From a virus (taxonomy: Duplodnaviria; Heunggongvirae; Uroviricota; Caudoviricetes): a stretch of 57,747 nucleotides of DNA. Positions 23,343 through 38,573 of the stretch are shown piece after piece. Positions within the stretch are counted from its first letter, which is position 1; each line of letters starts with the position of its first letter. The stretch spans positions 1 to 57,747 of IMG/VR virus record IMGVR_UViG_2917393062_000003, one strand, 5' to 3'. The notes beneath the pieces are model-generated. The model ran no database searches and was not told the origin of the DNA. It saw nothing but the letters and a program-made list of their open reading frames with translations. A program made the position numbers and the translations under genes.

Positions 23343-23363
23343 GTGTATTGCACTGTGTATTGC
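23343..23363. repeat. 21-bp subterminal repeat (tandem TGTGTATTGC units), left copy; candidate integrase arm-type site
   Basis: GTGTATTGCACTGTGTATTGC here and GTGTATTGCGCTGTGTATTGC at 38553-38573, direct orientation. Confidence 0.5.
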
Positions 23364-23383
23364 AAAAACGGGTTATAAATCAC

Positions 23384-24607
23384 ATGGCGCTAAACAAACT
23401 GAGCGATAAAAAACTTCGTTCCCTGCTTGGGCGCAGGAGTGAGAGGCAGGAAACCATCGCTGATGGTAACGGGCTTTCGGTACGGGTCAGTAAATACGGA
23501 TGTGTTAGTTTTGTTTTCTTTTACAGACTGGCGGGAAGGGGAACCGCGCCCATCTGGCTGACACTTGGAAAATATCCTGATCTGAGTCTCAAATCAGCGA
23601 GAGAGATGCGCGATCAGTGTCGAACTTGGCTTGCGGAGGGCAGAGATCCACGGATTCAGATAAAAATTGAACGGGAAGCCACCTTGCAACCTGTTACCGT
23701 TCGTGAGGCACTTGAATACTGGCTTGATAATTATGCAATGGATAAGCGTAGGGGAGCAGAACATATCAGGCAGTGCTTTGGTAAACATATTTATCCGGTG
23801 ATTGGTCATGTACCACTTAGTGATTGCTCTATATCTATGTGGATCAAGTGTTTTGACAAAATAAAAAAAGTAGCACCTGTACAGGCCGGAGCTTTGTTGC
23901 GTATATCAAAACAGGCGCTTAAATTTTGTAGGGTAAGAAAATACGCGATTAGTCATGAAATTGATGATCTTGAGGTCTGTGATGTGGGAAAAAAGTCTGC
24001 GCGAAGAAGCAGGGTTTTAACAGATGATGAAATCAGAGATTTATGGCGAAGTATTAATACTGATTATGACAATCACGAATTATCATATGAAAACCGAATT
24101 ATTTTACGTTTCCTGGTAGTTTTTGGTTGTCGACTGTCAGAAGTATTACTGTCGTCCTGGGTAGAGTGGGATTTTGATAAGAAATTATGGCGCGTTCCCG
24201 CTGATCATAGCAAAAATGGCAGGGAAATAATCAGACCGATTCCTGATGGCATGTTTAACTGGTTAGTTACGTTAAAAAAAATAACAGGTAACAAAGAAAA
24301 TGTGATTGGGTTTGATATGCGTCAGTGTACGGCAAGCGTAACTATCGGTAAGACATGGAAAAGGATGAAACACTCGGAGAAATGGACGGCGCATGATATG
24401 CGAAGAGTGTTTGCCACAAAACTAAGTGATCATGGTTTTGAACATAATGTGGTTGAACAGTTGCTTGGGCACACATTAGGCGGTGTTGCCGGGGTTTATA
24501 ACAGAAGCCAGTATATGGACAGAAAAAAAGAAGCTATGAACTGGTGGTACGACTATCTGAATAAGCAAATTAGTGGTGACAGTAATGATTCAAATAGTTA
24601 CGCGTGA
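23384..24607 (+). CDS. P4-like tyrosine integrase (N-terminal arm-binding-type domain)
   Basis: about 408 aa from MALNKLSDKKLRSL; catalytic motifs RLSEV, HDMRRVFAT, GGVAGVYNRSQY. Confidence 0.85.
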   Translation: MALNKLSDKKLRSLLGRRSERQETIADGNGLSVRVSKYGCVSFVFFYRLAGRGTAPIWLTLGKYPDLSLKSAREMRDQCRTWLAEGRDPRIQIKIEREATLQPVTVREALEYWLDNYAMDKRRGAEHIRQCFGKHIYPVIGHVPLSDCSISMWIKCFDKIKKVAPVQAGALLRISKQALKFCRVRKYAISHEIDDLEVCDVGKKSARRSRVLTDDEIRDLWRSINTDYDNHELSYENRIILRFLVVFGCRLSEVLLSSWVEWDFDKKLWRVPADHSKNGREIIRPIPDGMFNWLVTLKKITGNKENVIGFDMRQCTASVTIGKTWKRMKHSEKWTAHDMRRVFATKLSDHGFEHNVVEQLLGHTLGGVAGVYNRSQYMDRKKEAMNWWYDYLNKQISGDSNDSNSYA

Positions 24608-24806
24608 AGAACTTGAAAATGATAAAACAATCGACAGGATGATTAAGGAAGATGAATGTGCATGGTTAACAGCTCTTGGCAGGAGACACAGAGCATTACT
24701 TGAAAAGGAAGGAAAATTTCCACGTAAAATATGTATTGGCCCACAAACAAAAGTCTGGCGCTTATCTGAGGTGCTGGAATGGGTAAAGGGTGAATGGAAA
24801 CCCTGA
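24585..24806 (+). CDS. AlpA-family regulator
   Basis: EGKFPRKICIGPQTKVWRLSEVLEWV pattern; start ambiguous (24573, 24585 or 24639). Confidence 0.6.
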   Translation: MIQIVTREELENDKTIDRMIKEDECAWLTALGRRHRALLEKEGKFPRKICIGPQTKVWRLSEVLEWVKGEWKP

Positions 24807-24830
24807 ACTAAATTAAATGAGATATAATCA

Positions 24831-24855
24831 ACCCGTCTTTTGGCGGGTTTTTTTA
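24831..24855 (+). terminator. intrinsic terminator-like hairpin abutting the second alpA-like gene
   Basis: acccgtc-tttt-ggcgggt followed by 7 T. Confidence 0.4.
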
Positions 24856-24869
24856 TAGGTGATATTTTT

Positions 24870-25148
24870 ATGCAAAAATTTATTTATCCTACACCCGAAG
24901 AACGCATTCAGATTCTGAAAGATCATGGCGAACCGTATGATCGCCGTATACGCGAACATGAGTGTGCCAATCGTACCGGGCTTTCAAGAAGCAGACGTTG
25001 GGTACTTGAACAGGAGGGAGCATTTCCTGCTCGTGCTCATTTAGGGAAAGTGTCTGTTTCCTGGTTGCTCTCTGATGTGCTCTGGTGGGTTATGCATCCG
25101 CCAGGAGTAAAGGAAGTAAACAGCCCATACAAAAACGCCAATAAGTAA
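24870..25148 (+). CDS. second AlpA-family regulator
   Basis: EQEGAFPARAHLGKVSVSWLLSDVLWWV pattern. Confidence 0.6.
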   Translation: MQKFIYPTPEERIQILKDHGEPYDRRIREHECANRTGLSRSRRWVLEQEGAFPARAHLGKVSVSWLLSDVLWWVMHPPGVKEVNSPYKNANK

Positions 25149-25158
25149 TTACCGACAA

Positions 25159-25186
25159 CCCCGCACCACGCAATGCGGGGTTTTTT
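25159..25186 (+). terminator. rho-independent terminator
   Basis: ccccgca-ccacgcaa-tgcgggg followed by 6 T. Confidence 0.65.
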
Positions 25187-25205
25187 GTATGTGAGGTAGA
25201 AAGTG

Positions 25206-25799
25206 ATGAATAAAAATATTGCCGCGACGGGCAAGGGTGACGCACGTCATATGAAAAAATTCTGTGATATTCGTGATCTGGTCGTTCTGCGCTTTGATAG
25301 TGTGAACGTTCGCGTGGTGTATCTGAACGGCGATCCGTGGTTTGTTGGCGCTGATGTGTGTGCGGCGCTGGAAATTAGCAACGTTACCGATGCTGTTTCA
25401 GTTCTGGATAGCGATGAGGTAATGACCCTAGCTTTAACCGAGGGTCATTCAGGTAAGCGTGGTGGTGCCAGAAGTTGGAATGTTGTATCAGAATCAGGTT
25501 TTTACAAGTTGATCGCCAGAAGTCGCAAAGCTGTTAATCCTAGCACGTTCGCCCATCGTTTCAGTAATTGGGTATTCAGAAATGTGATACCGGGTATCAG
25601 AAAAACGGGGGCTTATGGTATCCCGTGGGGCGCATTACAGGATTTTTCCCGCCGCAAAGAGCAATACCAGATAAGTGCCAGCGAGAAGGGGAGGGAGCTA
25701 CAGGCATGTAAGCGCAAAAAGCGTGAGCTGGAGGAAGAAGAAAAAAGGCTGATACGTGAATACCAGCCTGAGTTTTACTTTGGTGAGCGTATTCAGTAA
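25206..25799 (+). CDS. Bro-N domain protein (antirepressor-like)
   Basis: N-terminal Bro-N pattern FVGADVCAALEISNVTDAVS...FYKLIARS...FAHRFSNWV. Confidence 0.7.
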   Translation: MNKNIAATGKGDARHMKKFCDIRDLVVLRFDSVNVRVVYLNGDPWFVGADVCAALEISNVTDAVSVLDSDEVMTLALTEGHSGKRGGARSWNVVSESGFYKLIARSRKAVNPSTFAHRFSNWVFRNVIPGIRKTGAYGIPWGALQDFSRRKEQYQISASEKGRELQACKRKKRELEEEEKRLIREYQPEFYFGERIQ

Positions 25800-26449
25800 C
25801 CACACGCGGTGTTGATTATACGGTACATCGTGTTGACCGGGAAGCTACCCACCAGCAAGGCAAAATCTTCTGCTAAAAAATGACATATGACCAGTCGTCC
25901 GGAAAGCATGAAATTTTACAAAAATGGAAAATGAAGATTTTTATTGTGCTGGTGGGTAAAAACAAAAAGCGCCCCGTTACCGGAGCGCCATTGCGAACAA
26001 TTAACCTACTGCGCAAAAAATGAATCTGTGCGGGGGGATTATATCAACCGTGGTCGAAATGACCATAGTTGCAGGATAACAGGCAAAACAAAGGCCACCC
26101 GCTACGGTGGCCCCTCGACACAAGCTACACGTTATCCCCAACGCATGAGCATAACCAACAATGCCACATTTACGGCTGGTGGGCAAATCCTGAGCTGTTC
26201 TGTAATTACAGGAACTACGGCATTGTCGCGGTTAGGTTATGCTCAACTTTTTTTCAACTCTATATCGCAAGCACGCCGTAATATATCGCCTTCATTGCTT
26301 CCGCAAAGATTCTTTTTCTCGAAGCATGATTTTAAGATAAAGGCGGCGACAATTAGAACAATCGCACAGAGTGCACAATTTTTAAGTTTTGGCATCTTTT
26401 ACTCCTATGGTTGCCGCCGTGATTCCTCACACCACGGCGCTGATAGTAA

Positions 26450-26629
26450 TTATTCTGATTCTTTGGCCTTGCGGCGCTGGCGGCGTTTGATCTCGCCACG
26501 CATGGCTGTAACGATAAACTGCGCGTCTGTTTCGTTTTCCTCTTTGACCAAATTCATTTCGCTTAAAACTTCTAGAGGGATTCTAGCCGTTTTTTGTTGT
26601 GATTTGTTGTTGGTTGTACCCGTTGGCAT
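26450..26629 (-). CDS. small regulator, possibly ribbon-helix-helix type
   Basis: 59 aa from MPTGTTNNK; very strong SD AAGGAGG; divergent from the rightward operon. Confidence 0.45.
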   Translation of the reverse strand: MPTGTTNNKSQQKTARIPLEVLSEMNLVKEENETDAQFIVTAMRGEIKRRQRRKAKESE

Positions 26630-26691
26630 TACTAGCCTCCTTACTGTTAGGTGGCGTTCAGTATACGTAGAAAAAAAAAATAAAAAAAAGC

Positions 26692-26742
26692 TTGAAGTGC
26701 AAGTCACCTAAAAGTAGCATAATCCTCAAAGGTGACTTGCAC
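26692..26742 (+). promoter_or_regulatory. rightward promoter bracketed by a perfect 13-bp inverted repeat (operator)
   Basis: -35 TTGAAG, 17-nt spacer, -10 TAGCAT; inverted repeat GTGCAAGTCACCT (26697-26709) / AGGTGACTTGCAC (26730-26742); upstream A-tract. Confidence 0.5.
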
Positions 26743-26823
26743 CTTAAAGACAAAGCCCCGCAAGTGTCGTTACCACTCACAGGGCTTCTAACCACCAACG
26801 ATAACGAGAGTATCGAGGTAGCT

Positions 26824-27030
26824 ATGTTAAATCATACCACACACCCGCAAGGGCGGGACTCGCACAACCTGAATAAATATATCTGGCGTTTTATCGCTCT
26901 GAGCACGGCACAACCGCGCGTGATTACCATTGAGGCCACCAGTGAACAGGAAGCCTGTCAGCAATCACCGGCTGGCTGCGTGATGGTATTCGCCGCCCAT
27001 ATTCGTCAGGGGGTGCACCATGTGCAATAA
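26824..27030 (+). CDS. hypothetical small protein (satellite rightward operon gene 1)
   Basis: ATG 26824 with SD GAGG. Confidence 0.4.
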   Translation: MLNHTTHPQGRDSHNLNKYIWRFIALSTAQPRVITIEATSEQEACQQSPAGCVMVFAAHIRQGVHHVQ

Positions 27031-27256
27031 CACCCGTCCGGACTCAGCCGCCGAAGCTATCAGAACGCTAATGCACGCGCTGATTGATATTTCATGCACG
27101 GCAGCAACCGCAGAAAAACACATTACCAGAGAGACGGAATATGCAGGGGCGATAATCCCGCATTCGCTGGCATATGTGCAGCTTAGTGCCGACATGGCAC
27201 TGGATGAGGCAGGCAAAATTCTTACCGCAGATATCCAGGGGGGACGCCATGCATAA
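27020..27256 (+). CDS. hypothetical small protein
   Basis: overlapping, translationally coupled ORF. Confidence 0.4.
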   Translation: MCNNTRPDSAAEAIRTLMHALIDISCTAATAEKHITRETEYAGAIIPHSLAYVQLSADMALDEAGKILTADIQGGRHA

Positions 27257-27461
27257 TCATGAAGCGCACTTACCTGTAGTGCTGAATGTGCCATCAGATT
27301 ATACGGGGCGCGTACTGGTGTATCTGGAAAAAGGCCGGGTTAAATGCCAGTGCCGTTTAATGGAAAACGAATTTATCAGCACTCTTGCGGGATTTTCTGA
27401 AATGCTCACTAAATCTGGTGTTAGTGCAGACCAGTTACGCGGGGGCGATTATGCGAAATAA
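27249..27461 (+). CDS. hypothetical small protein
   Basis: ATG 27249 overlapping upstream stop. Confidence 0.4.
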   Translation: MHNHEAHLPVVLNVPSDYTGRVLVYLEKGRVKCQCRLMENEFISTLAGFSEMLTKSGVSADQLRGGDYAK

Positions 27462-27669
27462 ACGTGATATTGAAGACCTGGCATTTGAAGCCCTGCACTC
27501 TGCGAAAAAGATCAGGGAAGTCGTCAATATGTGGATGAACAGCCTTAGCACCGATGAATCCGATAGCAGAGAAGAAATTCTTATTTCTTTGTTGTTAGAC
27601 CTGGCAAATACACAGGTTTCTCTGACATCTGATATTGAGCTCGCCGCTAAAAAGCTGCCTCTGGAGTAA
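27451..27669 (+). CDS. hypothetical small protein
   Basis: ATG 27451 overlapping upstream stop. Confidence 0.4.
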   Translation: MRNKRDIEDLAFEALHSAKKIREVVNMWMNSLSTDESDSREEILISLLLDLANTQVSLTSDIELAAKKLPLE

Positions 27670-27799
27670 AAAAACATGAAAAAGAAAAAATTCTGGCTTT
27701 ACTGCCAGCGGTCACGCTCGGCCTGAAATCCGCCCCGGTGATATTTTCCGGGATAAATACGGCAGCACGATAACGATTAAAACTGTCGATGATTTTCGT

Positions 27800-27991
27800 G
27801 TGACCTATATCCGCGAAGGTTATGCGCATCCCTGCGTGTCGTCACATATGCGCTTTGACAGGGAGTTCACCTTGGTAAGCAAAGCACCACCAGCAGAATT
27901 AAGCGACATCGACAGAATCATGCGCGTTACAGGAATGGAACGCATTAAGGCAGTACGTGAAATTATTCGTGAACGGGGAAAGGCAAAATGA
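27800..27991 (+). CDS. hypothetical small protein (GTG start)
   Basis: 63-aa ORF ending in ATGA overlap with the replication gene; weak RBS. Confidence 0.25.
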   Translation: MTYIREGYAHPCVSSHMRFDREFTLVSKAPPAELSDIDRIMRVTGMERIKAVREIIRERGKAK

Positions 27992-30111
27992 AGCGCGCAC
28001 CAAACTTAAAGCACCAGCCAGCCGATAAAATGACGGAGGTTATCATCTTTGCGGGTAGTGATGCGTGGAGCCATGCGAAAGAGTGGCAGGAATGGGCAGG
28101 TAAGCATATTGCCGCCGACAATGTGCCGCCTGTCGTTCTGTCAGATGAACACCTGAAAGATATTACCGGTTATCAAATTATTGATGATAGTCGTCAGTGT
28201 GTGCGTGTTTACCGCGCAGGGCACATCACTGAACGTAGCCTTACACAGATCGTCACGTTGCTGGCTGTGGCTGGCGTGAAGACCGTATACGAATACGCGG
28301 GGATAACTGACACCAGCCCGGCGGATTTATCCGACCAGTTGCCTCGCCTCAAAGACGAATACGAGCGCGGGGAAAGTCTGGTGTTGCCCTTAAAGAAAAA
28401 AATCACAGAAAGCCCGGGTGATGATGAATTAAAGCCCCGCGTTGAAAGCCGCGCCGATGGTGTTTTCTGGGTAACGCCAAAAGTGGATAAGCAGTCAGGC
28501 GAAATTATCCGGCCTGAGACGTGGTTATGTTCCCCGCTTGAACTACTGGGAACGGGGACAATCGGTAAAGAGCATTACCGCGTGATGCGCTGGAAAAAAT
28601 TCGCAAATCATGAAGTCATCACAATGGCGGTTCCGTGCGGTGGCATTGGCGACCGTGACGGCTGGCGGCTGCTGAAAGACCACGGACTGAACGTAACAAC
28701 TAACGGCAAAAATAGGGCTATCCTGGCTGACTGGATGCAGTTAAGCGGAAGCCATGAGGAATGGCAGTTAAGCACAACAACGGGCTGGCATTTTGGCGCG
28801 TACATCATGCCGGACGGTTCGGTCATTGGTGATTGCGAAAAGCCAGTCCTGTTTACCGGAAAAACGGCTGCTGTTAATGGCTATTCCGTGGCAGGAACGG
28901 CGGAGGGTTGGCGCGATACCGTGGCGCGGCTGGCTGGTGGTAATCCGTCCATGATGCTGGGTGTGGCGGTATCGTTATCCGCACCATTAATCGGGCTGGT
29001 GGGTGCTGACGGCTTCGGGGTACATCTTTTCGAACAGTCATCGGCAGGGAAAACCACCACACAGAACATCGCATCCAGTTTATGGGGAGAGCCGGACGCA
29101 CAACGGCTGACCTGGTACGGCACGGCGTTAGGTATCGCCAACGAGGCCGAAGCACATAATGACGGGCTGTTACCCCTGGATGAAATAGGTCAGGCCGGAA
29201 ACGCGCGGGAGGTGTCCACGTCAGCCTATACGCTGTTTAACGGTTCCGGGAAATTACAGGGGGCAAAGGACGGCGGCAACAGGGAGATAAAACACTGGCG
29301 AACGGTGGCAATCAGTACCGGAGAAATGGACGTTGAAACATTCCTCAAAACGGAAGGGATAAAAGTCAAGGCGGGGCAGCTTGTCCGCCTGCTTAACGTG
29401 CCAATGGAAAAAGCCACACAATTTCACGAATACAGCACCGGAAAGGCACACGCAGACGCGTTAAAGGATGCCTGGACAGAAAATCACGGGGCGGCGGGGC
29501 GTGAATGGGTTAAATGGTTGGCAGACCATCAGCAGGAGGCAAAGGACACGGTAAGGGCATGCCGTGAACGGTGGCGCAACCTGATACCGGAGAGCTACGG
29601 CGAGCAGGTACACCGCGTGGGTGAGCGTTTCGCCATACTGGAGGCCGCGCTTGTGCTTTCCGGTCATGTTACTGGCTGGGATGTTCAGGCGTGCCGCGAT
29701 GCCATACAGCATAATTTTTATGCCTGGGTGAAGGAGTTCGGCACGGGTAACAGGGAGTTTAAACAGATGGTTGAACAGGCAGAGGCTTTTTTAGCGTCGT
29801 TCGGATTCAGCAGATACCTTCCGTGGCCCAACACCGACGAGCGTGATTTACCGATTAAAGAGCTTGCCGGATACAGAAAGGGGAGTATCAGAAACGAAGA
29901 TGACGAGTTCCGTTTTTACACGTTCCCGCATGTATTTGAGGGTGAGATAGCACAGGGATTTAATCCGTCTCACTTTGCCCGCGCGTTGAGTGCTGCCGGA
30001 ATGCTGGAAGCGGGTAACGATCGCCGTTACAAGAAAAAGGCGCTCGGCAAAATTGGGGGGAAGCAGCATGTTTTTTACGTGCTGATGTTCCAGCCTGAGG
30101 CAGAAGATTAA
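27988..30111 (+). CDS. satellite replication protein with P-loop NTPase (DUF927-like primase/helicase class)
   Basis: 707 aa; Walker A SSAGKTT; iterons immediately downstream; family name from memory. Confidence 0.6.
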   Translation: MKRAPNLKHQPADKMTEVIIFAGSDAWSHAKEWQEWAGKHIAADNVPPVVLSDEHLKDITGYQIIDDSRQCVRVYRAGHITERSLTQIVTLLAVAGVKTVYEYAGITDTSPADLSDQLPRLKDEYERGESLVLPLKKKITESPGDDELKPRVESRADGVFWVTPKVDKQSGEIIRPETWLCSPLELLGTGTIGKEHYRVMRWKKFANHEVITMAVPCGGIGDRDGWRLLKDHGLNVTTNGKNRAILADWMQLSGSHEEWQLSTTTGWHFGAYIMPDGSVIGDCEKPVLFTGKTAAVNGYSVAGTAEGWRDTVARLAGGNPSMMLGVAVSLSAPLIGLVGADGFGVHLFEQSSAGKTTTQNIASSLWGEPDAQRLTWYGTALGIANEAEAHNDGLLPLDEIGQAGNAREVSTSAYTLFNGSGKLQGAKDGGNREIKHWRTVAISTGEMDVETFLKTEGIKVKAGQLVRLLNVPMEKATQFHEYSTGKAHADALKDAWTENHGAAGREWVKWLADHQQEAKDTVRACRERWRNLIPESYGEQVHRVGERFAILEAALVLSGHVTGWDVQACRDAIQHNFYAWVKEFGTGNREFKQMVEQAEAFLASFGFSRYLPWPNTDERDLPIKELAGYRKGSIRNEDDEFRFYTFPHVFEGEIAQGFNPSHFARALSAAGMLEAGNDRRYKKKALGKIGGKQHVFYVLMFQPEAED

Positions 30112-30132
30112 CCCCTGTGTGAGGTGAAAAGT

Positions 30133-30257
30133 TGCGGGTTATGCGGGTTATCCTGTGTATAAGTGCATTAACTGTATGAATAAAAAGGAAATCAATAACC
30201 CGCACGTAACCCGCAAAACGGCAGTTATAACCCGCAAAAGTGCGATTATAACCCGCA
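30133..30257. repeat. iteron cluster (TAACCCGCA units in both orientations), candidate replication origin
   Basis: two inverted-orientation units at 30133-30150 and four direct units between 30196 and 30257. Confidence 0.6.
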
Positions 30258-30320
30258 GAATTTCACCGTAAGGGTGTAAACAAGCGTAACAATCAACGTT
30301 AAAACCGGAGAACAGACAGC

Positions 30321-30743
30321 ATGACAGCACAGATAGCAGCTTACGGGCGGCTGGTGGCTGACCCGCAGTTAAAGACCACCAGCAAAGGGACACAAATGGC
30401 GATGGCGAGTATGGCAGTTCCCCTGCCGTGCAGCCAGGCAGATGACGGAACGGCGACGATGTGGTTATCCGTCCTGGCGTTTGGCAGACAGGCCGACGCA
30501 CTGGCAAAACACCACAAAGGCGAACTGGTGAGCGTGGCGGGTAACATGCAGGTAAGCCAGTGGACAGGTCAGAACGGCGAAATGCGGCAGGGTTGGCAGG
30601 TCATCGCAGACAGCGTAATCAGTGCGCGAACGGCGCGACCGGGCGGCAAAAAAGGCCAGCAGGGCCAGGCTACTGACGCACTGAACAGGGCAAAACAACA
30701 GGCGGGGAATGATGATCCGTACGGGGACGGGATACCGTTTTAA
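30321..30743 (+). CDS. SSB-like OB-fold protein with acidic C-terminal DGIPF tip
   Basis: 140 aa; Gly/Gln-rich linker and C-terminal DDPYGDGIPF resembling the SSB DDDIPF tail. Confidence 0.55.
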   Translation: MTAQIAAYGRLVADPQLKTTSKGTQMAMASMAVPLPCSQADDGTATMWLSVLAFGRQADALAKHHKGELVSVAGNMQVSQWTGQNGEMRQGWQVIADSVISARTARPGGKKGQQGQATDALNRAKQQAGNDDPYGDGIPF

Positions 30744-30758
30744 GCAGTGAGGTACAGC

Positions 30759-31334: not shown

Positions 31335-31343
31335 AATAATAAT

Positions 31344-31372
31344 GGCCTGGTATTTTCCAGGCCATTTTTTTT
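31344..31372. terminator. rho-independent terminator between convergent genes
   Basis: ggcctgg-tatttt-ccaggcc followed by 8 T. Confidence 0.65.
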
Positions 31373-31844
31373 AGAAGTCGATCTCTGTATCGCGATTAAA
31401 TTCATCGCTAAGGTAAAGTGCTTCGCTTGGGCATTTTCCGTTTTCCAGTAATGTTTCCCAGAAATCTTTATCGAAACACCCCTCAAGATACAGATAGCGG
31501 CAGATGTGAAGTAAATCACTTCGTGTCCATCCGTGCATGCTGCTACTTGTTACACCATATTCACTTTCTAGTTTATAGAATGTGAGCGCCTCCCGGTCGT
31601 GCCAGGCTTTGCACAGACGATCGTATATCTTTTTAGCTTTGTTTTTAGATGTGCCGAAAAACTCTTCGTAAATTTCATGTGGGCGAGCAGGAATACTTCC
31701 GTCGCCATCCTGCAAGAAAGGATAAACATCTGCCTCCCAGGCATACACGTAAGAATCGCTGAACTCATCATAGTGTTTACCAAGGTGGAGAATCTGCAAT
31801 CGTTGCTGAATGAACATTGCTTTTTTCAGTTCATTTTCTGACAT
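31371..31844 (-). CDS. opposite-strand cargo protein of unknown function (candidate accessory or defence gene)
   Basis: 157 aa; only minus-strand gene in the satellite core; noticeably lower GC than neighbours; own upstream region. Confidence 0.55.
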   Translation of the reverse strand: MSENELKKAMFIQQRLQILHLGKHYDEFSDSYVYAWEADVYPFLQDGDGSIPARPHEIYEEFFGTSKNKAKKIYDRLCKAWHDREALTFYKLESEYGVTSSSMHGWTRSDLLHICRYLYLEGCFDKDFWETLLENGKCPSEALYLSDEFNRDTEIDF

Positions 31845-32138
31845 AGTTCGTTCCTCCTGATTGACGAGCAGAAAATGTACGGAACAGCTTATTTATTTTT
31901 TCAGGTTTTGTAAATTATTTGTTCGTGGTTGTTCCAGGTTGTTCGGTGATTCTGGCTGATGTTTACATACTGATTTTTATGTATATGTTGGCGTGTGGCA
32001 CTCAGACGTGAGCCGCCACAATGCCGCCTGACCCCCTGCGCGATGCCGGGTTGATCTGCGAGATGCCGGGAGTGTCGGGCGGCGCTCCCTCCGTGTTGGT
32101 TTCACGTCCTGAATCTTAACCAATACGAGAAAACCTTC

Positions 32139-33284
32139 ATGAAGAAATTAATCGAACTCCGCCAGCAAAAAACCGCCCTGAAAAACCAGATGCGATCCCT
32201 GCTGGAAAAAGCCGACAGTGAAAACCGCAGCCTGAACGATGACGAGGGCAAACAGTTTGATGAACTGCGTGCAAAAGCCGATTCCCTCGACACAGAAATT
32301 TCCCGTCTTGAAGCTGTTGCGGATGAAGAACGTAACCAGCCAGGTGTTTCCGTCGAAGAGAAAATCACCAAAGACGAACTGCGCTCTTACATTCTGACCG
32401 GGGAAACCCGCAACCTGTCCGGCAGTGTCCCGGCTGATGGTGGTTATACGGTTATCCCGGAACTGAACAGAGAAATTATGCGTCAGCTTTCTGATGAATC
32501 GGTGATGCGTAAAATCTGTACCGTTAAAACCATTCACAGCAATGAATTTAAGCAACTGGTTTCTGCCGGGGGTGCGGTCGTTGAACACGGCGAAGAAGGT
32601 GCGGCACGTAACCAGACGGCAACACCAAAACTGAATGAAGTCAGTATCCGCCTGTATCCGATCTACGCTTACCCGAAAACCACTCAGGAAATTATCGATT
32701 TTTCCGAAGTCGATATTATGGGCTGGTTATCTTCTGAAATTGGCGACACTTTCGTTGATACCGAAGAAATGGATCTGGTTTCTGGTGATGGCGAGAAAAA
32801 AGCTAAAGGTTTCCTGGCTTTTCCGCGCACTGCGGATAACGACAAAACCCGTCCTTTCGGTACGCTCCAGACGAAAAAAGTTACTGGCAGTCTCAGCGCC
32901 GACATGCTGATTGACCTGAAATTTACGCTGCGCAATAAGTACCGCAAAAAAGCTGTATGGGTGATGAACTCAAATACAGCCGCCTCCGCACAAAAACTGA
33001 AAAATGCCACTGGTGATTACATCTGGCGCGATCGTTTACAGGCTGGTGATCCTGATTCTCTGCTGGGGCTTCCGGTTGAATATCTGGAATTTATGCCGGA
33101 CGGTGTGATTGCAGTAGGTGACTTTAAGCGCGGTTATTTCATCGTTGACCATGAAACCGGTACGCGTACCCGTCCGGATTTCAGCGAACCCGGATTCATT
33201 AACATCTATACCCAGAAATATCTGGGCGGTGGTGTGGTGGATTCGAACGCCATCAAGATTCTGGAAATTCAGGCTGGCAAGTAA
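32139..33284 (+). CDS. HK97-family major capsid protein (satellite)
   Basis: 381 aa; paralogous in architecture to prophage MCP at 41463-42686. Confidence 0.8.
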   Translation: MKKLIELRQQKTALKNQMRSLLEKADSENRSLNDDEGKQFDELRAKADSLDTEISRLEAVADEERNQPGVSVEEKITKDELRSYILTGETRNLSGSVPADGGYTVIPELNREIMRQLSDESVMRKICTVKTIHSNEFKQLVSAGGAVVEHGEEGAARNQTATPKLNEVSIRLYPIYAYPKTTQEIIDFSEVDIMGWLSSEIGDTFVDTEEMDLVSGDGEKKAKGFLAFPRTADNDKTRPFGTLQTKKVTGSLSADMLIDLKFTLRNKYRKKAVWVMNSNTAASAQKLKNATGDYIWRDRLQAGDPDSLLGLPVEYLEFMPDGVIAVGDFKRGYFIVDHETGTRTRPDFSEPGFINIYTQKYLGGGVVDSNAIKILEIQAGK

Positions 33285-33333
33285 TGAGCAAAGGGGGCTT
33301 CGGCCTCCTTTTTCAGCTTTATGGAGTACACCG

Positions 33334-33894
33334 ATGAAAAATACCGATTTTGAAATCCGTACATCTGAACTGACCGCCAGTGATAAAAAACTGGTGGGTT
33401 ATGCCGTTCGCTGGAACAGCCTTTCAGAAATTATCTGGGACGAATTCCGCGAACAGTTTACGCCGGGGGCTTTTGCTGACTATCTGGCGGCGGGTAATGA
33501 TGTGCGCTGCCTGTATGAGCATGACTATACCCGACTGCTGGGGCGCACCAAATCCGGAACACTGGTACTGACTGAGGACAACACCGGGCTACGTTTTGAA
33601 CTGACACCGCCTGATACCCAGCTTGGAAAAGATGTGCTTACGCTGGTGGAGCGTGGCGACATTACAGGAATGAGCTTTGGCTTTCGCGCATTATGCGAAG
33701 AATGGAATATCGCGCAAAAACCGTATCTGCGCACTGTTACCGCCGCAGAACTTCGTGAAATCACGATAACGTCAATGCCTGCTTATCCCGAATCTGGCGT
33801 GGAGATTGCCCGCCGTTCGTTGTTTGCACAGCACCCTGAATTACGCCCGACAGGAAATAATCGTCATCGCTGGGCTGAACTGGCGGGGTTGTGA
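33334..33894 (+). CDS. HK97-family prohead protease (satellite)
   Basis: about 186 aa from MKNTDFEIR with SD GGAG; paralog of 40798-41448. Confidence 0.75.
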   Translation: MKNTDFEIRTSELTASDKKLVGYAVRWNSLSEIIWDEFREQFTPGAFADYLAAGNDVRCLYEHDYTRLLGRTKSGTLVLTEDNTGLRFELTPPDTQLGKDVLTLVERGDITGMSFGFRALCEEWNIAQKPYLRTVTAAELREITITSMPAYPESGVEIARRSLFAQHPELRPTGNNRHRWAELAGL

Positions 33895-33895
33895 T

Positions 33896-35110
33896 ATGTG
33901 GTGGCCTTTTAGTCGTAAAAAAAGCGATCTGCGTAACCTGTCCATTGATGATTTTCTGGCGCTGTCCGGCGTACCGAATACCGGATCCGGAGAATATGTT
34001 TCTGCCGGGACGGCTGAATCATTGCCTGCTGTGATGAACGCGGTTTCTGTCATCGCTGAGGCGGTGGCCACGATGCCGTGTTATCTGTATCTGGTACGTA
34101 ATGACAAGGGCAGGGAGGCGCGGGAATGGCTGGACAGTCACCCGGTCGATATTCTGCTGAATGAGCAGCCTAATTCGTGCCAGACACCTTACCAGTTTAA
34201 ACGCACAATGATGCGTCACTGCCTGCTGAACGGTAACGCCTATGCGGTTATTGAGTGGGGGCGGGACGGTCAGCCAAAATCACTTCATCCTTATGCGCCG
34301 GGTTGTGTTGTACCGGAACGCACTGGCGCACACAAATACCGCTATACCATCACCGAACCCTATACAGGAACGGTGCGCACGTATTTACAGGAAGAAGTCC
34401 TGCATCTCCGCTATGCCTCGGATGATGGCTTTCTGGGACGTTCCCCCGTCACGATTTGCCGTGAGGCGCTGGGGCTTGGCCTTGCTCAACAGCGTCACGG
34501 AGCCAGCATTATGAAAGATGGCATGATGGCGGCAGGGGTTATTACGTCAGGCGAATGGCTGGACGGCGTGAAAGGTAAACAGGCATTAGACGCCCTGGAA
34601 CGCTACAAGGGGGCGAAAAATGCCGGAAAAACGCCAATCCTTGAAGGGGGCATGGATTACAAGCAACTGGGGATGAGTAACCAGGATGCGGAATGGCTGG
34701 CCTCCCGTCGCTTCTCCATTGAAGACATCGCCCGGATGTTCAACGTATCGCCTATTTTTCTGCAGGAATACAGCAACAGCACCTACAGCAATTTCAGCGA
34801 GGCAAGCCGCGCGTTTCTGACCATGACAATGCGCCCATGGCTGGCGAACTTCGAACAGCAAATTAAGGCCGCTTTGCTGGTGGCTTCTCCCGTACCTGGT
34901 ACCCGTTATCTGGTTGAGTTTGATTCAGCCGATTTATTACGCGCCACCCCTACCGAACGTTACGCCACGTATGAGAAAGGGATTAAGAACGGGATCATGA
35001 ATCCGAACGAAGCCCGCGAACGTGAGGGGATGCCGCCGCGTGAAGGTGGCGACGAATTCAGCCAGGCATGGAAGCAGACGGTGGAAATTAAAGGTGAAAA
35101 AGATGAGTGA
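33896..35110 (+). CDS. portal protein (satellite)
   Basis: about 404 aa from MWWPFSRKK; paralog of prophage portal 39579-40820. Confidence 0.75.
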   Translation: MWWPFSRKKSDLRNLSIDDFLALSGVPNTGSGEYVSAGTAESLPAVMNAVSVIAEAVATMPCYLYLVRNDKGREAREWLDSHPVDILLNEQPNSCQTPYQFKRTMMRHCLLNGNAYAVIEWGRDGQPKSLHPYAPGCVVPERTGAHKYRYTITEPYTGTVRTYLQEEVLHLRYASDDGFLGRSPVTICREALGLGLAQQRHGASIMKDGMMAAGVITSGEWLDGVKGKQALDALERYKGAKNAGKTPILEGGMDYKQLGMSNQDAEWLASRRFSIEDIARMFNVSPIFLQEYSNSTYSNFSEASRAFLTMTMRPWLANFEQQIKAALLVASPVPGTRYLVEFDSADLLRATPTERYATYEKGIKNGIMNPNEAREREGMPPREGGDEFSQAWKQTVEIKGEKDE

Positions 35111-35402
35111 AGAAAAAATTACACCTGATGAGGTCAGGGCACATCTTCGCCTTGATAACTTCTACGATGAAGGCGAACTTCTGAAAATGTATACCGATGC
35201 GGCGCTGGAAGCCTGCCAGAAGCATATCGGGAAACGTTTTGAAGACGGGCTGGAATTTACCCCGGCAATACGTGTTGGTTGCCTGATGTACATTGCTTTC
35301 CTGTACGAGAACAGGGAAGCGGTTTCACCTGTGGAGCAGTCTGAACTGCCTATGGCTATTTCTGCGCTCTGGTCGGTTTATCGTGATGTAGGGGTGTACT
35401 GA
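35103..35402 (+). CDS. head-tail connector (gp6-like) protein (satellite)
   Basis: 99 aa; HLRLDNFYDEGELLK pattern shared with prophage 42733-43056. Confidence 0.65.
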   Translation: MSEEKITPDEVRAHLRLDNFYDEGELLKMYTDAALEACQKHIGKRFEDGLEFTPAIRVGCLMYIAFLYENREAVSPVEQSELPMAISALWSVYRDVGVY

Positions 35403-35842
35403 TGCCGTGGCAACCATTAAGGCGATGCACTGAGCCGGGCTGTAATAAGCGCGTGAAGTCCGGCAAGTGCGAAGATCACAGGCGGGCTGCATGGCGTGCA
35501 GAGGATGCCAGACGGGGACACCGCCGCGCGCGCGGGTATTCCCGACAGTGGGACAAATACCGCGCCCTGTACCTGAGCAAAAACCCGTTATGCGTGCGTT
35601 GTCTGGCTAAGGGGATTTATACGCCAGCTCTTGTGGTGGATCACATCATTCCCATCAATGGCGGCGGTGATGTTCTCTTCTGGCCTGAGTGGAATCACCA
35701 GGCATTGTGCCAGACGTGCCACAACCGTAAGACGACACGGGAAGATCCAGCCACGAAAGCGAACCGTAAGGCGGGCATGTATCGCGAGCAGGAAGAACGG
35801 GCGGCACATCGTAACGACTGGATGTATGGCGATGATGACTGA
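35402..35842 (+). CDS. HNH endonuclease (satellite, terminase-associated)
   Basis: 146 aa; Cys-rich, VDHIIPINGGG...CQTCHNRKT motif. Confidence 0.8.
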   Translation: MPWQPLRRCTEPGCNKRVKSGKCEDHRRAAWRAEDARRGHRRARGYSRQWDKYRALYLSKNPLCVRCLAKGIYTPALVVDHIIPINGGGDVLFWPEWNHQALCQTCHNRKTTREDPATKANRKAGMYREQEERAAHRNDWMYGDDD

Positions 35843-36011
35843 ACAGGAGCAAAACAGGCTGATACGTGGACTGATAAGGCAGCGTGACACATGGAAGGCA
35901 CAGGAGACAGGGCACAAAGCCAACAGGACAGGGCGCACAGAACGCACCACAGCGAAGCGATTAACCGACCGTGACCGCGAGGTCATGGAATGTTTTCGCA
36001 ATCGCTGGTGA
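35826..36011 (+). CDS. hypothetical small basic protein
   Basis: 61-aa ORF overlapping HNH stop. Confidence 0.25.
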   Translation: MAMMTEQEQNRLIRGLIRQRDTWKAQETGHKANRTGRTERTTAKRLTDRDREVMECFRNRW

Positions 36012-36130
36012 GGCCGTCAGAGGGGGTGGGGGAGGTTTTCAGGACAAAACCGTCCCTGCCGGACACCGACCGCCTCCTCAAATTTTTGTGCACGGAAATT
36101 TTTTTGAAAATAATTGGGCGAAAAAAGAAC

Positions 36131-36487
36131 ATGGCAAGACCACCAAAAGCCCCCGCTTACCTGGATGAAATCGCGGTCAGGCAGTGGAAGGAAAAATCGC
36201 GCCAGCTTTCCGGGCGGGAAGACCTTACCCCCGCCGACTGGAGCAATCTGGAACTGTATTGCGTTAACTACTCCATATACCGCAAAGCCGTCGAAGACCT
36301 TGCGACGCGCGGCTTCAGCATTGTTAACAGTCAGGGCAGCGAGAGCAGAAACCCCGCCCTGAGCGCAAAGGCTGACGCGGAAAGAATAATGATCAAAATG
36401 GCTTCTTTGCTGGGTTTTGACCCGGTAAGCCGCCGCAGAAATCCACCGGAAACAGAGGAAGAGGACGAGCTTGACCGCCTGGCATGA
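36131..36487 (+). CDS. terminase small subunit (satellite)
   Basis: start MARPPKAPAYLDEIAVRQW; paralog of 21703-22185. Confidence 0.65.
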   Translation: MARPPKAPAYLDEIAVRQWKEKSRQLSGREDLTPADWSNLELYCVNYSIYRKAVEDLATRGFSIVNSQGSESRNPALSAKADAERIMIKMASLLGFDPVSRRRNPPETEEEDELDRLA

Positions 36488-38132
36488 GTACGCAGAAGGC
36501 GTAAAAAACGGCAAAATTACGGCCTGTAAACGACTGAAACAGGCCGTTAAACGGTATTTTTCTGACCTTGAAAACCCCCTTTACACGTTCGATCCGGAGG
36601 TCGTGGAGCGGTTTATTGCCTTTTCTAGGGTGTGTCCGCACGTAAAAGGCGCAATGCGCGGTAGCCCCATTGAGCTGGAGCCGTGGCAGCAGTTCGCCTT
36701 TGCCTGCATCCTGGGCTTTAAGGTTAAGGCCACCGGACGGCGCAAATACACCAGCGCATTCATTGAAGTACCGCGAAAAAATGCCAAATCCACGGTCGCC
36801 GCTATCCTGGCTAACTGGTTTCTGGTTATGGAACACGGGCAGCAGGATATTTACACCGCCGCCGTGAGTCGTGATCAGGCGCGGATCGTGTTTGATGATG
36901 CGCGTCAGATGTGCCTTTTATCCCGACCGTTACGAAAGCGGGTAAATATTCAGGCGCACAAGGTGATACACCCGAAAACCAACAGCCTGTTAAAGCCACT
37001 GGCAGCAAAAGCGGCAACCATTGAGGGGACAAACCCGAGTCTTGCCATTGTGGATGAATATCACCTGCACCCTGACAACGGGGTTTATTCCGCGCTTGAA
37101 CTGGGAATGGGGGCGCGTCCGGAGGGGTTATTATTTGCCATCACCACATCGGGGAGCAACGTTGTTTCAGCCTGTAAACAACACTACGACTATTGCTGCC
37201 AGATACTGGATGGTGAAGAGGTGAACGAATCCATGTTCGTGCTGATTTACGAGCTGGATGATGAAAGCGAGGTTGACGATCCGGCGATGTGGATAAAGGC
37301 GAATCCCAATATCGATGTTTCCGTCGATCGTGAAAAACTGGCCTCAACCATCCAGAAAGCGCGGGGTATTCCGTCGCAGTGGGTGGAAATGCTCACCAAG
37401 CGATTCAATATCTGGTGTCAGGGGGCTACGCCGTGGATGGGTAACGGTGCATGGGCGGAGTGCGCCGGAACGTTCGCGGAGGCGGATTTATACGGGCAGG
37501 AGTGCTACGCGGGGCTGGACTTATCATCAACCAGCGATATTTCCAGCGTGTGCTATGCCTTTCCGGTCGGTAAAAAGATTATGCTGGTTTCCCGTCACTA
37601 TCTGCCGGAATTTCAGCTACAGAACCCCGCCAATAAAAACCGCGCCATCTATCGCCAGTGGGTAAAGGCGGGCTGGATACGCACAACACCGGGTGACTGC
37701 ATTGATTATGACCGTATCCGTGATGACATCATGGCGGATGCAGAGAATTTCAATATCAGGCTGGTGGGCTTCGATACATGGAACGCCACGCACCTGAGGA
37801 CGCAGCTACAGGGGGCAGGATTTGAGGTGGAGCCGTTCCCGCAAACATACCTTCGTTTCAGTCCGGCGGCGAAATCGTTCGAAGTTTTTGTTAACCGGAA
37901 GGTGATTGTTCATCGTGGTGATCCGGTGCTGGCCTGGTCAATGAGTAATGTTGTGATGCAGAGTGACGCGAACGCCAATATCAAGCCGAACAAGAAAAAA
38001 TCATCCAACAAGATAGACCCGAGCGTTGCGGCGCTGATGGCGTTTGGCACATTCCAGGCAGAGCATGAGGAATTTGCATTCGATATGAGCGACAGCCACA
38101 AAGAGCGGCTTGCGGCGTTTGATGGTGTGTAA
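36471..38132 (+). CDS. terminase large subunit (satellite, intact)
   Basis: 553 aa; TTG start overlapping terS; PRKNAKST Walker A-like; homologous to both split prophage terL parts. Confidence 0.85.
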   Translation: MTAWHEYAEGVKNGKITACKRLKQAVKRYFSDLENPLYTFDPEVVERFIAFSRVCPHVKGAMRGSPIELEPWQQFAFACILGFKVKATGRRKYTSAFIEVPRKNAKSTVAAILANWFLVMEHGQQDIYTAAVSRDQARIVFDDARQMCLLSRPLRKRVNIQAHKVIHPKTNSLLKPLAAKAATIEGTNPSLAIVDEYHLHPDNGVYSALELGMGARPEGLLFAITTSGSNVVSACKQHYDYCCQILDGEEVNESMFVLIYELDDESEVDDPAMWIKANPNIDVSVDREKLASTIQKARGIPSQWVEMLTKRFNIWCQGATPWMGNGAWAECAGTFAEADLYGQECYAGLDLSSTSDISSVCYAFPVGKKIMLVSRHYLPEFQLQNPANKNRAIYRQWVKAGWIRTTPGDCIDYDRIRDDIMADAENFNIRLVGFDTWNATHLRTQLQGAGFEVEPFPQTYLRFSPAAKSFEVFVNRKVIVHRGDPVLAWSMSNVVMQSDANANIKPNKKKSSNKIDPSVAALMAFGTFQAEHEEFAFDMSDSHKERLAAFDGV

Positions 38133-38212
38133 CGGAATGGATGAGAGAGGACAATGCTCATTTAATGGAATAAATTTTCAGTATTACCGGTACCCACTTT
38201 CAGGGATGTTTT

Positions 38213-38370
38213 TGCGGGTTATTTGAGGGGGAGGTGCGGGTTATTTTGAATGTCTTGCGGGTTACATTCTGGCTGATATTTAAATACGTTGTTTTTTAAC
38301 GCATTGATATTAAAGAGTAAAAAATACTTAGCACGCGAAGATAACCCGCTAACCCGCATAACCCGCGCTG
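38213..38370. repeat. second iteron cluster (AACCCGC units), crr-like
   Basis: three rc units at 38213-38264 and three direct units at 38341-38370; same repeat unit as 30133-30257. Confidence 0.55.
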
Positions 38371-38552
38371 TTTTGTATATATATACGAAAAATTGCATTC
38401 AGGGGGGGATCGAAATTTCTACTGCCTCTTATCTCTTTGAGTGCTCACCTCGTCAGATTGTTACACACAAGAAATAAAAAATGCTTCGCGATGGTAGGTC
38501 GAATCACTGTATCAAAAAACGGTGTGTATCAGCATTAAAACAATACAGATAC

Positions 38553-38573
38553 GTGTATTGCGCTGTGTATTGC
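38553..38573. repeat. 21-bp subterminal repeat, right copy
   Basis: GTGTATTGCGCTGTGTATTGC; one mismatch to left copy at 23343-23363. Confidence 0.5.

Follow-up and report, generated by a model that had tools for sequence, protein, structure and literature searches.

Helper-embedded satellites (HE-PICIs) and their doubled TGTATTGC motif were described by Tommasini, Mageeney & Williams (2023, NAR Genom Bioinform 5:lqad036, PMC10111431). The motif, tgTGTATTGCantgTGTATTGCa, occurs twice in the same orientation, one copy lying about 81 bp upstream of the attP centre and the other about 132 bp downstream of it, and is stated to be absent from other PICIs; the authors considered the integrase arm domain, AlpA or some unknown protein as its binder without choosing among them. 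That publication thus already contains the motif, where it lies and the hypothesis of arm sites. The locus studied here, in a 57,747-nt stretch of Caudoviricetes DNA (hereafter the window), is one more instance without essential differences, sharing the sequence, the copy layout, the site group A:Terminase_1:246, the identity block tcacgaa, the host species and the proposed role, as sites for the arm domains of an integrase tetramer. We add comparative evidence pointing to the integrase arm domain, not AlpA, as the reader of the motif, and find the same architecture with other half-sites in EcCICFT073 and P4.

The attP arm repeats of P4, which integrates in a tRNA-Leu gene and not in a phage gene, were reportedly described by Pierson and Kahn in 1987. 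In the P4 record NC_001609, tandem 12-mer doublets (TTGGGGGCATAA / TTGGGGGCATCT and GTGGGGGCACAA / AAGGGGGCATAT) are annotated as ‘attP arm sequence repeat’. As in the window, they are co-oriented on either side of the attP core; one of them lies 15 nt before the int ATG. The integrase is of the same family (Arm-DNA-bind_3 / P4-like), P4 being the type member of the clade. P4 differs in its half-sites (TTGGGGGCAT versus TGTGTATTGCA), in a doublet gap of 185 nt versus 209 nt, in having extra single copies, one inverted over the int start codon, and in an arm domain only 28% identical to that of the window integrase.

The prototype Gram-negative PICI, EcCICFT073 (Fillol-Salom et al. 2018, PMC6092414), resembles the window element in its int-alpA module and its primase, SSB and capsid genes. 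We identified a 12-bp-period doublet 22 nt before its int and a second doublet on the other arm; no report of this doublet was found in the literature searched. Its half-site is different (GGTGTAGTTAAT, twice on both arms), its arm domain is 49% identical to that of the window integrase, and it is chromosomal, between roxA and phoQ, rather than inside a prophage gene. Lambda (P1, P2, P'1-P'3) and the P' sites of KplE1 IntS follow the same principle of a heterobivalent integrase with arm sites apart from its core sites, on both arms and with an IHF bend, and KplE1, like P4, has arm sites beside the int start through which the integrase represses its own gene. Both have arm sites in other numbers and orientations, the lambda arm domain belongs to Arm-DNA-bind_1, and lambda integrates and excises with different subsets of its five sites, whereas only four half-sites, two per arm, are present in the window.

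The satellite sits in a lambdoid prophage, inserted in frame and co-oriented in the large terminase gene, a late gene and a catalogued site (Table 1). The split falls between TerL_nuclease profile positions 63 and 64, in-silico excision rejoins one open frame, and the uninterrupted terminase gene was found in 905 E. coli genomes. The gene order is int, two alpA, Bro-N, a repressor-like gene, a DUF927 primase/helicase and SSB, followed by capsid, protease, portal, adaptor, HNH, TerS and TerL. The element has its own capsid, protease, portal, head-tail adaptor, TerS and TerL genes (Pfam and PHROG matches, 32139-38132), and Pfam and PHROG identified no tail genes within 23213-38655. Own head and packaging genes without tail genes define a capsid-forming PICI (cf-PICI), and by its gene content this element would count as one.

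Table 1. Features of the satellite, its attachment sites and the interrupted helper gene (window coordinates).
Feature	Position	Strand	Remarks
Helper large terminase, 5' part	22185..23212	+	Pfam TerL_ATPase and TerL_nuclease (profile positions 2-63)
attL imperfect identity block	23199-23212		AATTTTTTCACGAA
attL copy of 7-bp crossover core	23206..23212	+	TCACGAA; attL/attR compared with the intact attB in L001
Helper-embedded satellite	23213..38655	+	HE-PICI, group A:Terminase_1:246; 15,443 bp
Left doublet (P'-arm, attL)	23342..23365	+	TGTGTATTGCAC, TGTGTATTGCAA; two half-sites, 12-bp period; fits the PMC10111431 consensus
Tyrosine integrase	23384..24607	+	407 aa; Pfam Arm-DNA-bind_3 and Phage_integrase
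Integrase N-terminal arm-type DNA-binding domain	23384-23668		About aa 1-95; proposed reader of the doublets
First AlpA-family helix-turn-helix protein	24585..24806	+	PHROG 2790; PGAP annotation of near-identical copies
Second AlpA-family helix-turn-helix protein	24870..25148	+	PHROG 2790, E 1.5e-34; PGAP annotation of near-identical copies
Right doublet (P-arm, attR)	38552..38575	+	CGTGTATTGCGC, TGTGTATTGCTT; co-oriented with left doublet
IHF-consensus site	38605..38617	-	TATCAATCGTTTA (WATCAANNNNTTR); between right doublet and core; candidate
attR imperfect identity block	38642-38655		AATATTCTCACGAA
attR copy of 7-bp crossover core	38649..38655	+	TCACGAA; attL/attR compared with the intact attB in L001
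Helper large terminase, 3' part	38656..39385	+	Pfam TerL_nuclease (profile positions 64-283)

The sequence-only reading had described a 21-bp repeat 20 bp before the integrase ATG, a one-mismatch copy 75 bp inside the right junction and a tandem structure in both, and each description proved accurate. The exact 21-mer GTGTATTGCACTGTGTATTGC occupies 23343-23363 (+), 20 nt from the ATG at 23384; the co-oriented second copy, at 38553-38573 (+), carries one mismatch (A to G at position 10) and ends 75 nt before the attR core. No further copies with up to three mismatches were detected on either strand of the whole window, and 100 dinucleotide-preserving shuffles gave no matches. Each 21-mer consists of two 10-nt units spaced 12 nt apart: TGTGTATTGC at 23342 and 23354 on the left, and CGTGTATTGC at 38552 and TGTGTATTGC at 38564 on the right. 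Over the published motif length the copies read TGTGTATTGCACTGTGTATTGCA (23342-23364) and CGTGTATTGCGCTGTGTATTGCT (38552-38574), with all four TGTATTGC cores exact and in tandem at a 12-bp period, and the lone mismatch of the right copy falls at a lower-case position of the published consensus. The DNA around the left copy is unrelated to that around the right copy, which sets the pair apart from the att duplication.

The doublets occupy the two arms of the satellite. In the reconstructed attP there is one co-oriented doublet per arm, unrelated to the core sequence and at fixed distances from it: the 24-bp left doublet starts 129 nt past the crossover block (start minus block end, 130) and leaves 18 nt to the int ATG, and 80 nt separate the end of the 24-bp right doublet from the end of the crossover block. 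Counted with the published 23-nt motif, 81 nt lie between the right copy and the end of the identity block at 38655; counted from the centre of TCACGAA, the two distances are 78 and 133 nt. PMC10111431 gives no exact reference point for its distances, which leaves an ambiguity of 2-3 nt. Our doublet-to-doublet gap of 209 nt is in agreement with the published 213±4 (81±2 plus 132±2). The gap is 210-211 nt in HE-PICIs of the capsid site and 209 nt in EcCICFT073, and the doublet position relative to the crossover core is constant within about 2 nt. The pattern was detected nowhere else in the window or in three 40-kb loci of capsid-gene HE-PICIs. The supplement of PMC10111431 gives the identity block ‘tcacgaa’ for group A_Terminase_1_246, and both attL and attR of the window fit its alignments.

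The IHF-consensus site between the right doublet and the core is one of only four matches to that consensus in the window. Its natural variants, within its own group and in a second group, change at N positions only, and the strict consensus is present in some HE-PICI groups only. We regard it as a candidate for the place where the DNA is bent in the intasome.

Relatives were sampled by integrase, blind to the motif, giving 79 loci with 48-100% integrase identity. The sequence-only reading had named absence of the repeats from otherwise homologous elements as one result that would refute it, and the comparison did not refute it: a doublet lies 16-28 nt before int in 78 of the 79 loci, and in 34 of them a second, co-oriented doublet follows 8.6-11.2 kb downstream. 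The doublet is kept even though the surrounding DNA and the insertion sites vary, and in the right arms of three relatives (L003, L004 and L005) it is the sole common sequence. Relatives from Xenorhabdus, with 66% integrase identity, retain it about 20 nt ahead of int. One relative, L165, has a different doublet just upstream of int (GTGGGGTACTCG, twice, with a 12-bp period), and its integrase is 52% identical to that of the window in the arm domain and 51% in the rest. No alpA was detected in L165, so that this locus is unable to separate the integrase from AlpA as the reader.

The window integrase matches Arm-DNA-bind_3 over aa 6-92 (Pfam, 64 bits against a cut-off of 27), and the PDB homologues of its arm domain, 3JU0, 3JTZ and 3RMP, are P4-like integrase arm domains (E 4e-6 to 2e-5). 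The integrase is 49% identical to the integrases of capsid-site (E:Phage_cap_E:80 type) HE-PICIs; this figure, the 66% to the Xenorhabdus relatives and the att match to the published group would place it in the HE-PICI clade. Between the window and capsid-site integrases the arm domain is 71% identical, compared with 44% for the core-binding and 42% for the catalytic domain. Across 30 distinct motif-linked integrases the arm domain is 61-100% identical to that of the window and only 44-52% identical to that of EcCICFT073. Outside the arm the same proteins show 39-68% identity to the window (99% in one near-identical copy) and 37-46% to EcCICFT073, the two figures often being equal. All 31 motif-linked integrases compared have the same residues at six positions (Q22, S42, F43, V44, W58 and T60), which differ in both EcCICFT073 and P4; L165 departs at Q22, F43, V44 and W58.

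Non-embedded relatives with diverged arm domains (EcCICFT073, P4 and L165) carry other 12-bp-period doublets in the same places, and four doublet types pair with four arm-domain types, a covariation partly confounded by the co-inheritance of integrase and AlpA in one ‘integration zone’. These comparisons favour a motif that tracks the integrase arm domain rather than AlpA. We propose that the doublets most likely serve the P4-family tyrosine integrase encoded by the satellite itself as arm-type binding sites. The earlier suggestion of arm-type integrase sites thereby gains comparative support from the arm domain, the layout on both arms, conservation, covariation and the P4 parallel.

Alternatively, the doublets may be sites for an AlpA-family protein of the satellite, which would then prepare attL and attR for excision in the role of a recombination directionality factor or a transcription activator. 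Two alpA-family genes follow int, the first of them likely encoding an excision or activation factor, and tandem direct repeats in att arms are a frequent target of AlpA- and Xis-type factors, lambda Xis and KplE1 TorI among them. AlpA is also listed as an alternative binder in PMC10111431. We nevertheless consider this reading unlikely, as directionality factors usually bind one arm beside the core, whereas the doublets are symmetric on both arms. By overall identity, AlpA proteins of motif bearers resemble each other (30-67%) no more than they resemble the AlpA of EcCICFT073 (38-61%), which has a different doublet; the AlpA of L003, for example, is 58% identical to the latter and 53% and 47% identical to those of other motif-bearing elements. 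The presumed recognition helix, as read by eye, varies among motif bearers (GRRHRALLEK, ANSTRWKLEK, DSQYIRKLEK), while that of the second window AlpA (SRSRRWVLEQ) is like that of EcCICFT073 (SRSCRYRLEK). The number of alpA genes in HE-PICIs is one or two with the motif unchanged, and EcCICFT073 AlpA activates its own promoter but does not act on Pint (PMC6092414). The doublets also fit poorly into the class of directionality-factor (AlpA/Xis) sites, whose sequence should track the factor and which usually occupy a single arm: AlpA identity does not track the motif, and both arms carry the doublets equally.

All motif bearers lie within prophage late operons in the same orientation, and PMC10111431 leaves room for ‘some unknown DNA binding protein’, so a helper-phage or host protein, such as a late regulator, could bind the doublets and couple excision to helper late expression. 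This is very improbable, given that the motif is constant over helpers as diverse as lambda-like phages carrying capsid E and phages with a P27-type terminase, and that the non-embedded EcCICFT073, P4 and L165 have the same architecture with sequences that follow the integrase arm domain. The position of the left copy, 18-20 nt from the int ATG, would also suit a promoter or operator serving int only, and the repeats could be non-functional remnants of common ancestry. Neither is easily reconciled with the data, and we give them hardly any weight: no satellite gene lies downstream of the right copy, a promoter consensus was not found upstream of int, and the 8-bp core is invariant over integrases of 48-100% identity with unrelated flanks, at a distance from the crossover core that is fixed within about 2 nt.

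For the integrase as reader, we infer a mechanism of physical binding in which each doublet would offer two half-sites (core TGTATTGC) one helical turn (12 bp) apart. In the excised circle the doublets would flank the 7-bp core TCACGAA. An integrase tetramer would use its four N-terminal arm domains to grip one half-site each and its C-terminal domains to grip the core sites, both that of attP and that of the prophage terminase gene. Bending of the DNA, for which the IHF-consensus site is the probable place, would bring the arms back onto the core. As attL and attR retain one doublet each after integration, the same sites would serve excision, which would restore the helper terminase gene. Self-repression through comparably placed sites has been shown for P4 Int and KplE1 IntS (Panis et al. 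2010, PMC2951348). With the end of the left doublet so near the start codon of int, an integrase occupying it probably damps its own expression in the same manner. The search upstream of int gave no sigma-70 consensus promoter and hence no support for autoregulation at a dedicated promoter; int may instead be transcribed by read-through from the late operon of the helper.

Satellites inside the packaging or head genes of helper prophages must leave before the helper can make virions, and it is their attachment sites that the motif marks. The identity of the reader is needed for understanding and engineering the timing of excision, and would help precise annotation of nested elements. Beyond HE-PICIs, EcCICFT073 and L165 carry equivalent doublets of different sequence. 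We tentatively suggest, while regarding it as somewhat doubtful, a general 2+2 ‘arm code’ for the whole P4/PICI clade: two 12-bp-period half-sites per arm, a gap of about 209-211 nt in PICIs, a distance of 13-28 nt from one doublet to int, and a half-site set by a few beta-sheet residues of the arm domain, here perhaps Q22, S42-F43-V44, W58 and T60. If this is true, arm specificity would be readable from sequence and swappable independently of core specificity.

The right arm of the satellite recurs in eight IMG/VR loci. It is identical in two of them (L066 and L111), and in the other six (L016, L020, L021, L054, L095 and L100) a single base differs, just outside the motif.

The repeats are two 21-mers on the same strand, GTGTATTGCACTGTGTATTGC and, with one mismatch, GTGTATTGCGCTGTGTATTGC, each made of two 10-nt units whose starts are spaced 12 nt apart. 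We confirmed the placement given in the sequence-only reading: the left copy lies 20 nt 5' of the integrase ATG and the right copy 75 nt inside the right junction, measured from the end of the copy to the crossover core, and the tandem make-up described for both copies also holds. No further copy with up to 3 mismatches was detected on either strand of the whole 57.7-kb window, and no match occurred in 100 dinucleotide-preserving shuffles. Each 21-mer is contained in a 24-bp doublet of two half-sites with a 12-bp period.

Between the repeats lies a mobile element, inserted in the large terminase gene (TerL) of a lambdoid helper prophage, in the orientation of the helper late operon. Comparison of the intact site (attB) with the junctions (attL and attR) identified a perfect 7-bp identity block, TCACGAA, set inside an imperfect 14-bp block. 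In silico joining of 22185-23212 to 38656-39385 yields a single unbroken reading frame, and the joined sequence is the intact terminase gene found in 905 complete E. coli genomes (for example at locus L001). At least 80% of the element is present in 32 complete E. coli genomes, and its integrase occurs at ≥95% identity in 36. The satellite TerS and TerL belong to Pfam families shared with the disrupted helper TerL, and a 38-nt stretch of the latter (22902-22939) is 74% identical to 37110-37147. The gene content is cf-PICI-like: the helper terminase is disabled and the element encodes its own. The helper of a near-identical satellite in E. coli 2014C-3075, whose terminase gene is likewise interrupted, carries Shiga toxin stx1d genes; that satellite is thus embedded in an Stx phage.

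Features of the satellite, its attachment sites and its helper prophage (window coordinates; satellite genes in rightward order)
Feature	Position	Strand	Detail
Helper integrase	1216-2334	minus	lambda-type
Helper Q antiterminator	16893-17588		
Helper lysis genes and HNH gene			
Helper TerS	21703-22185		P27 family
Helper TerL, 5' part	22185-23270		ORF; TerL ATPase domain and nuclease profile positions 2-63
Identity block, left	23206-23212		TCACGAA
Satellite element	23213-38655		15,443 bp
Left doublet	23342-23365	plus	21-mer at 23343-23363
Satellite integrase	ATG at 23384		first gene; tyrosine integrase, N-terminal Arm-DNA-bind_3 domain
Two AlpA-family proteins			
Bro-N protein and repressor-like protein			
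DUF927 primase/helicase and SSB			
Iteron cluster	30123-30270		inverted-pair member at 30134-30150
Head/packaging module	32139-38132		complete: capsid, prohead protease, portal, adaptor, HNH, TerS, TerL (Pfam/PHROG)
Iteron cluster	38210-38370		inverted-pair member at 38350-38366
CAATACA	38541-38547		
Right doublet	38552-38575	plus	21-mer at 38553-38573
Candidate IHF site	38605-38617	minus	
Identity block, right	38649-38655		TCACGAA
Helper TerL, 3' part	38660-39385		nuclease profile positions 64-283
Helper portal and head genes			3' of split TerL

Satellites of this type, the helper-embedded PICIs (HE-PICIs), have integrases of a single clade, with 14 target sites spread over nine prophage late genes (Tommasini, Mageeney & Williams 2023, PMC10111431). 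Under 'Attachment sites', that study describes a doubled motif, tgTGTATTGCantgTGTATTGCa, as present in two co-oriented copies per HE-PICI, 81±2 bp upstream and 132±2 bp downstream of the centre of attP (the site of the excised circle), and as absent from other PICIs. Its supplement lists the E. coli group A_Terminase_1_246 with the identity block 'tcacgaa'; the window junctions match the attL and attR of this group, although the segments given there are too short to reach the doublets. Measured from the end of the identity block, the right 24-bp doublet in the window stops 80 nt short of it and the left doublet starts 129 nt past it. Both distances fall within the published tolerance, and the doublets are therefore a further example of an already described motif in an already described type of element. 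Our analysis confirms the observation and supports its interpretation, both of which the 2023 study had reported for this very element group. Only the comparative case for the integrase over AlpA, and the doublets of other sequence in two relatives, are mildly new. Of the six papers that mention HE-PICIs, none describes a binding experiment.

Among E. coli sequences, the integrase gene is closest (~65% DNA identity) to those of ~11-kb satellites inserted into the major capsid gene of lambda-like prophages (L003-L005). In these satellites CTGTATTGCAGCTTGTATTGC is found 13 nt 5' of int on the left arm, and TTGTATTGCACAATGTATTGC, TGTGTATTGCATGATGTATTGC or CATGTATTGCAGCATGTATTGC on the right arm, with right-arm flanks that are mutually unrelated. 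In the reconstructed attP the gap between doublets is 210-211 nt in these capsid-site elements versus 209 nt in the window. A slightly degenerate third half-site, TGTGTTGCA, is clear in them 8 nt upstream of the left doublet (~20003-20011). The match in the window (TGTTTTCA, 23329-23336) and that in Xenorhabdus were unconvincing, and we dropped the claim for both. Searching genome contigs with the integrase returned only two loci, both from Xenorhabdus (66% protein identity), with TGTGTATTGCAATGTGTATTGCAAA ~20 nt 5' of int; since their right ends fall outside the 10-kb flank, the comparison concerns the left doublets. The Xenorhabdus relatives adjoin different upstream genes in the two species (L007, 9701-9825; L006, 9337-9861).

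The pattern TGTATTGC-N4-TGTATTGC occurs at least 135 times in IMG/VR. A same-strand integrase homologue starts 15-68 nt downstream of at least 45 of these occurrences, and at least 7 loci contain two co-oriented copies 9.8-11.6 kb apart. Among the matches listed, many further occurrences are recognisable right arms and the remainder are coding tandem repeats or chance. The reverse search was seeded on integrase similarity, blind to the motif, and gave 79 testable loci with integrase identities of 48-100%. In 78 of them the doublet (≤1 mismatch per half-site) precedes the first integrase residue by 16-28 nt, and 34 loci have a second exact copy 8.6-11.2 kb downstream. The repeats are thus clearly retained in homologous elements; their absence had been named as one finding that would refute arm-type sites. 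In one HE-PICI subgroup from IMG/VR (L018, L019, L037, L043, L050 and L078) the predicted integrase start is 50-68 nt from the left doublet instead of 13-28 nt, which points to a miscalled start codon or to a spacing between doublet and int that is unconstrained.

At its N-terminus the integrase shares homology with arm-type binding domains of known structure from P4-like integrases (3JU0, 3JTZ/3RMP). Window and capsid-site integrases are 71% identical in this arm domain, 44% in the core-binding domain and 42% in the catalytic domain. Across 30 distinct motif-linked integrases, the arm domain is 61-100% identical to that of the window Int and 44-52% to that of EcCICFT073 Int, while the rest of the protein is 39-68% (99% in a near-identical copy) and 37-46% identical, respectively, and often equally close to both. 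The arm domain has stayed nearly constant across integrases of divergent core specificity, the pattern expected for a reader of a constant motif. Six of its columns (Q22, S42, F43, V44, W58 and T60) are invariant in 31 of 31 motif-linked integrases; all six differ in EcCICFT073 and P4, and four in L165, a non-embedded relative. By analogy with other arm domains, these columns may lie in predicted DNA-contacting beta-strands. The AlpA proteins of the element are the other candidates to read the doublets. AlpA does not follow the pattern of the arm domain: motif-bearing elements have AlpAs with 30-67% identity to the two in the window versus 38-61% to that of EcCICFT073, and the EcCICFT073 doublet differs from the HE-PICI motif. 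[quoted passage not shown] Further experimental hints come from P4 Int, which represses its own gene by binding DNA near the int start, and from KplE1 IntS, which does so via arm-type sites (PMC2951348). We found no useful binding studies of P4-like integrase arm domains (HAI7/HPI) in the literature.

Doublets with other half-sites occupy the same positions in three related systems. EcCICFT073 has its own doublet, GGTGTAGTTAATGGTGTAGTTAAT, 22 nt 5' of int and GGTGTAGTTAATGGTGTAGTCAAT on the other arm, with the same 209-nt gap as the window. In the P4 GenBank record, 12-mers labelled 'attP arm sequence repeats' form tandem doublets that flank the core on both sides: TTGGGGGCATAA and TTGGGGGCATCT 15 nt 5' of int, GTGGGGGCACAA and AAGGGGGCATAT across the core. 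L165, the sole exception in the integrase-seeded sample, adjoins a GGDEF-domain gene rather than lying in a phage gene and has the doublet GTGGGGTACTCGGTGGGGTACTCG upstream of int (1779-1802, two copies of GTGGGGTACTCG), unlike the HE-PICI motif. Its integrase is 51% identical to that of the window (arm 52%, rest 51%), a rest-of-protein identity equal to or above that of most HE-PICI integrases. Both the half-site of L165 and the arm-domain strand of its integrase (SWMFKYR) have similar counterparts in P4, the G-rich repeat and YWRMKYR, respectively. These cases amount to covariation of half-site sequence with the arm domain, and they identify the HE-PICI motif as the local form of the arm repeats classically known from P4. 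The equivalent doublets in EcCICFT073 and L165 also qualify the claim in PMC10111431 that other PICIs lack the doubled motif. Conservation and covariation support the arm-type interpretation, and we think it likely that the integrase arm domain reads the doublets. Recognition by AlpA seems improbable, and we consider it similarly doubtful that the doublets are read by other proteins or have no function, these options being taken together.

We suggest that an integrase tetramer would bridge the four arm half-sites (two plus two) and the core sites, with a DNA bend bringing the arms back over the core. Integration would place the satellite within the helper terminase gene. Excision would use the doublet kept in each of attL and attR, probably with assistance from AlpA elsewhere, and restore the terminase gene. 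When bound at the left doublet, which ends 18 nt from the int start, the integrase probably restrains int expression as well. A promoter and terminator scan of 23100-23500 gave nothing, including no sigma-70 consensus promoter 5' of int, in keeping with the published suggestion that transcription of the helper late genes reaches int. We thus dropped a dedicated int promoter overlapping the left doublet, and autoregulation at such a promoter is unsupported.

The window contains only four IHF-consensus matches, one of them halfway from the right doublet to the core. Where this site varies naturally, in this group and a second terminase-site group, the changes affect unspecified positions only, suggesting selection on the consensus. 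The strict consensus is present in the terminase-site groups and EcCICFT073 but was not found in capsid-site HE-PICIs, and we therefore retain the site as a candidate. The region 38300-38498 is common to hundreds of other E. coli PICI-like elements, whatever their integrase. The last ~160 nt of the element (38499-38660, with right doublet, IHF-like site and core) occur only alongside this integrase (34 genomes), whereas the adjoining 200 nt are widespread. Right arm and int thus move as one module, although the two are 15 kb apart when integrated.

Other repeats were also identified. An inverted partial copy, CAATACA (reverse complement TGTATTG), precedes the right doublet by 5 nt and is conserved in this site group only. 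On both arms, EcCICFT073 (L009, 15720-15760 and 26945-26975) has another doubled motif, TTGTTCCA / TTGTTTCA, whose units repeat every 10 bp and which is found ~25-35 nt 5' of the GGTGTAGTTAAT doublet. A second protein, for instance AlpA, could bind this motif; in the window element we saw no counterpart common to both arms. The element also contains two clusters of TAACCCGC / GCGGGTTA iterons, one directly 3' of the DUF927 primase gene and the other 3' of the satellite TerL, which include a perfect 17-nt inverted pair (GCGGGTTATGCGGGTTA and TAACCCGCATAACCCGC). These clusters are probably origin and/or packaging sites.
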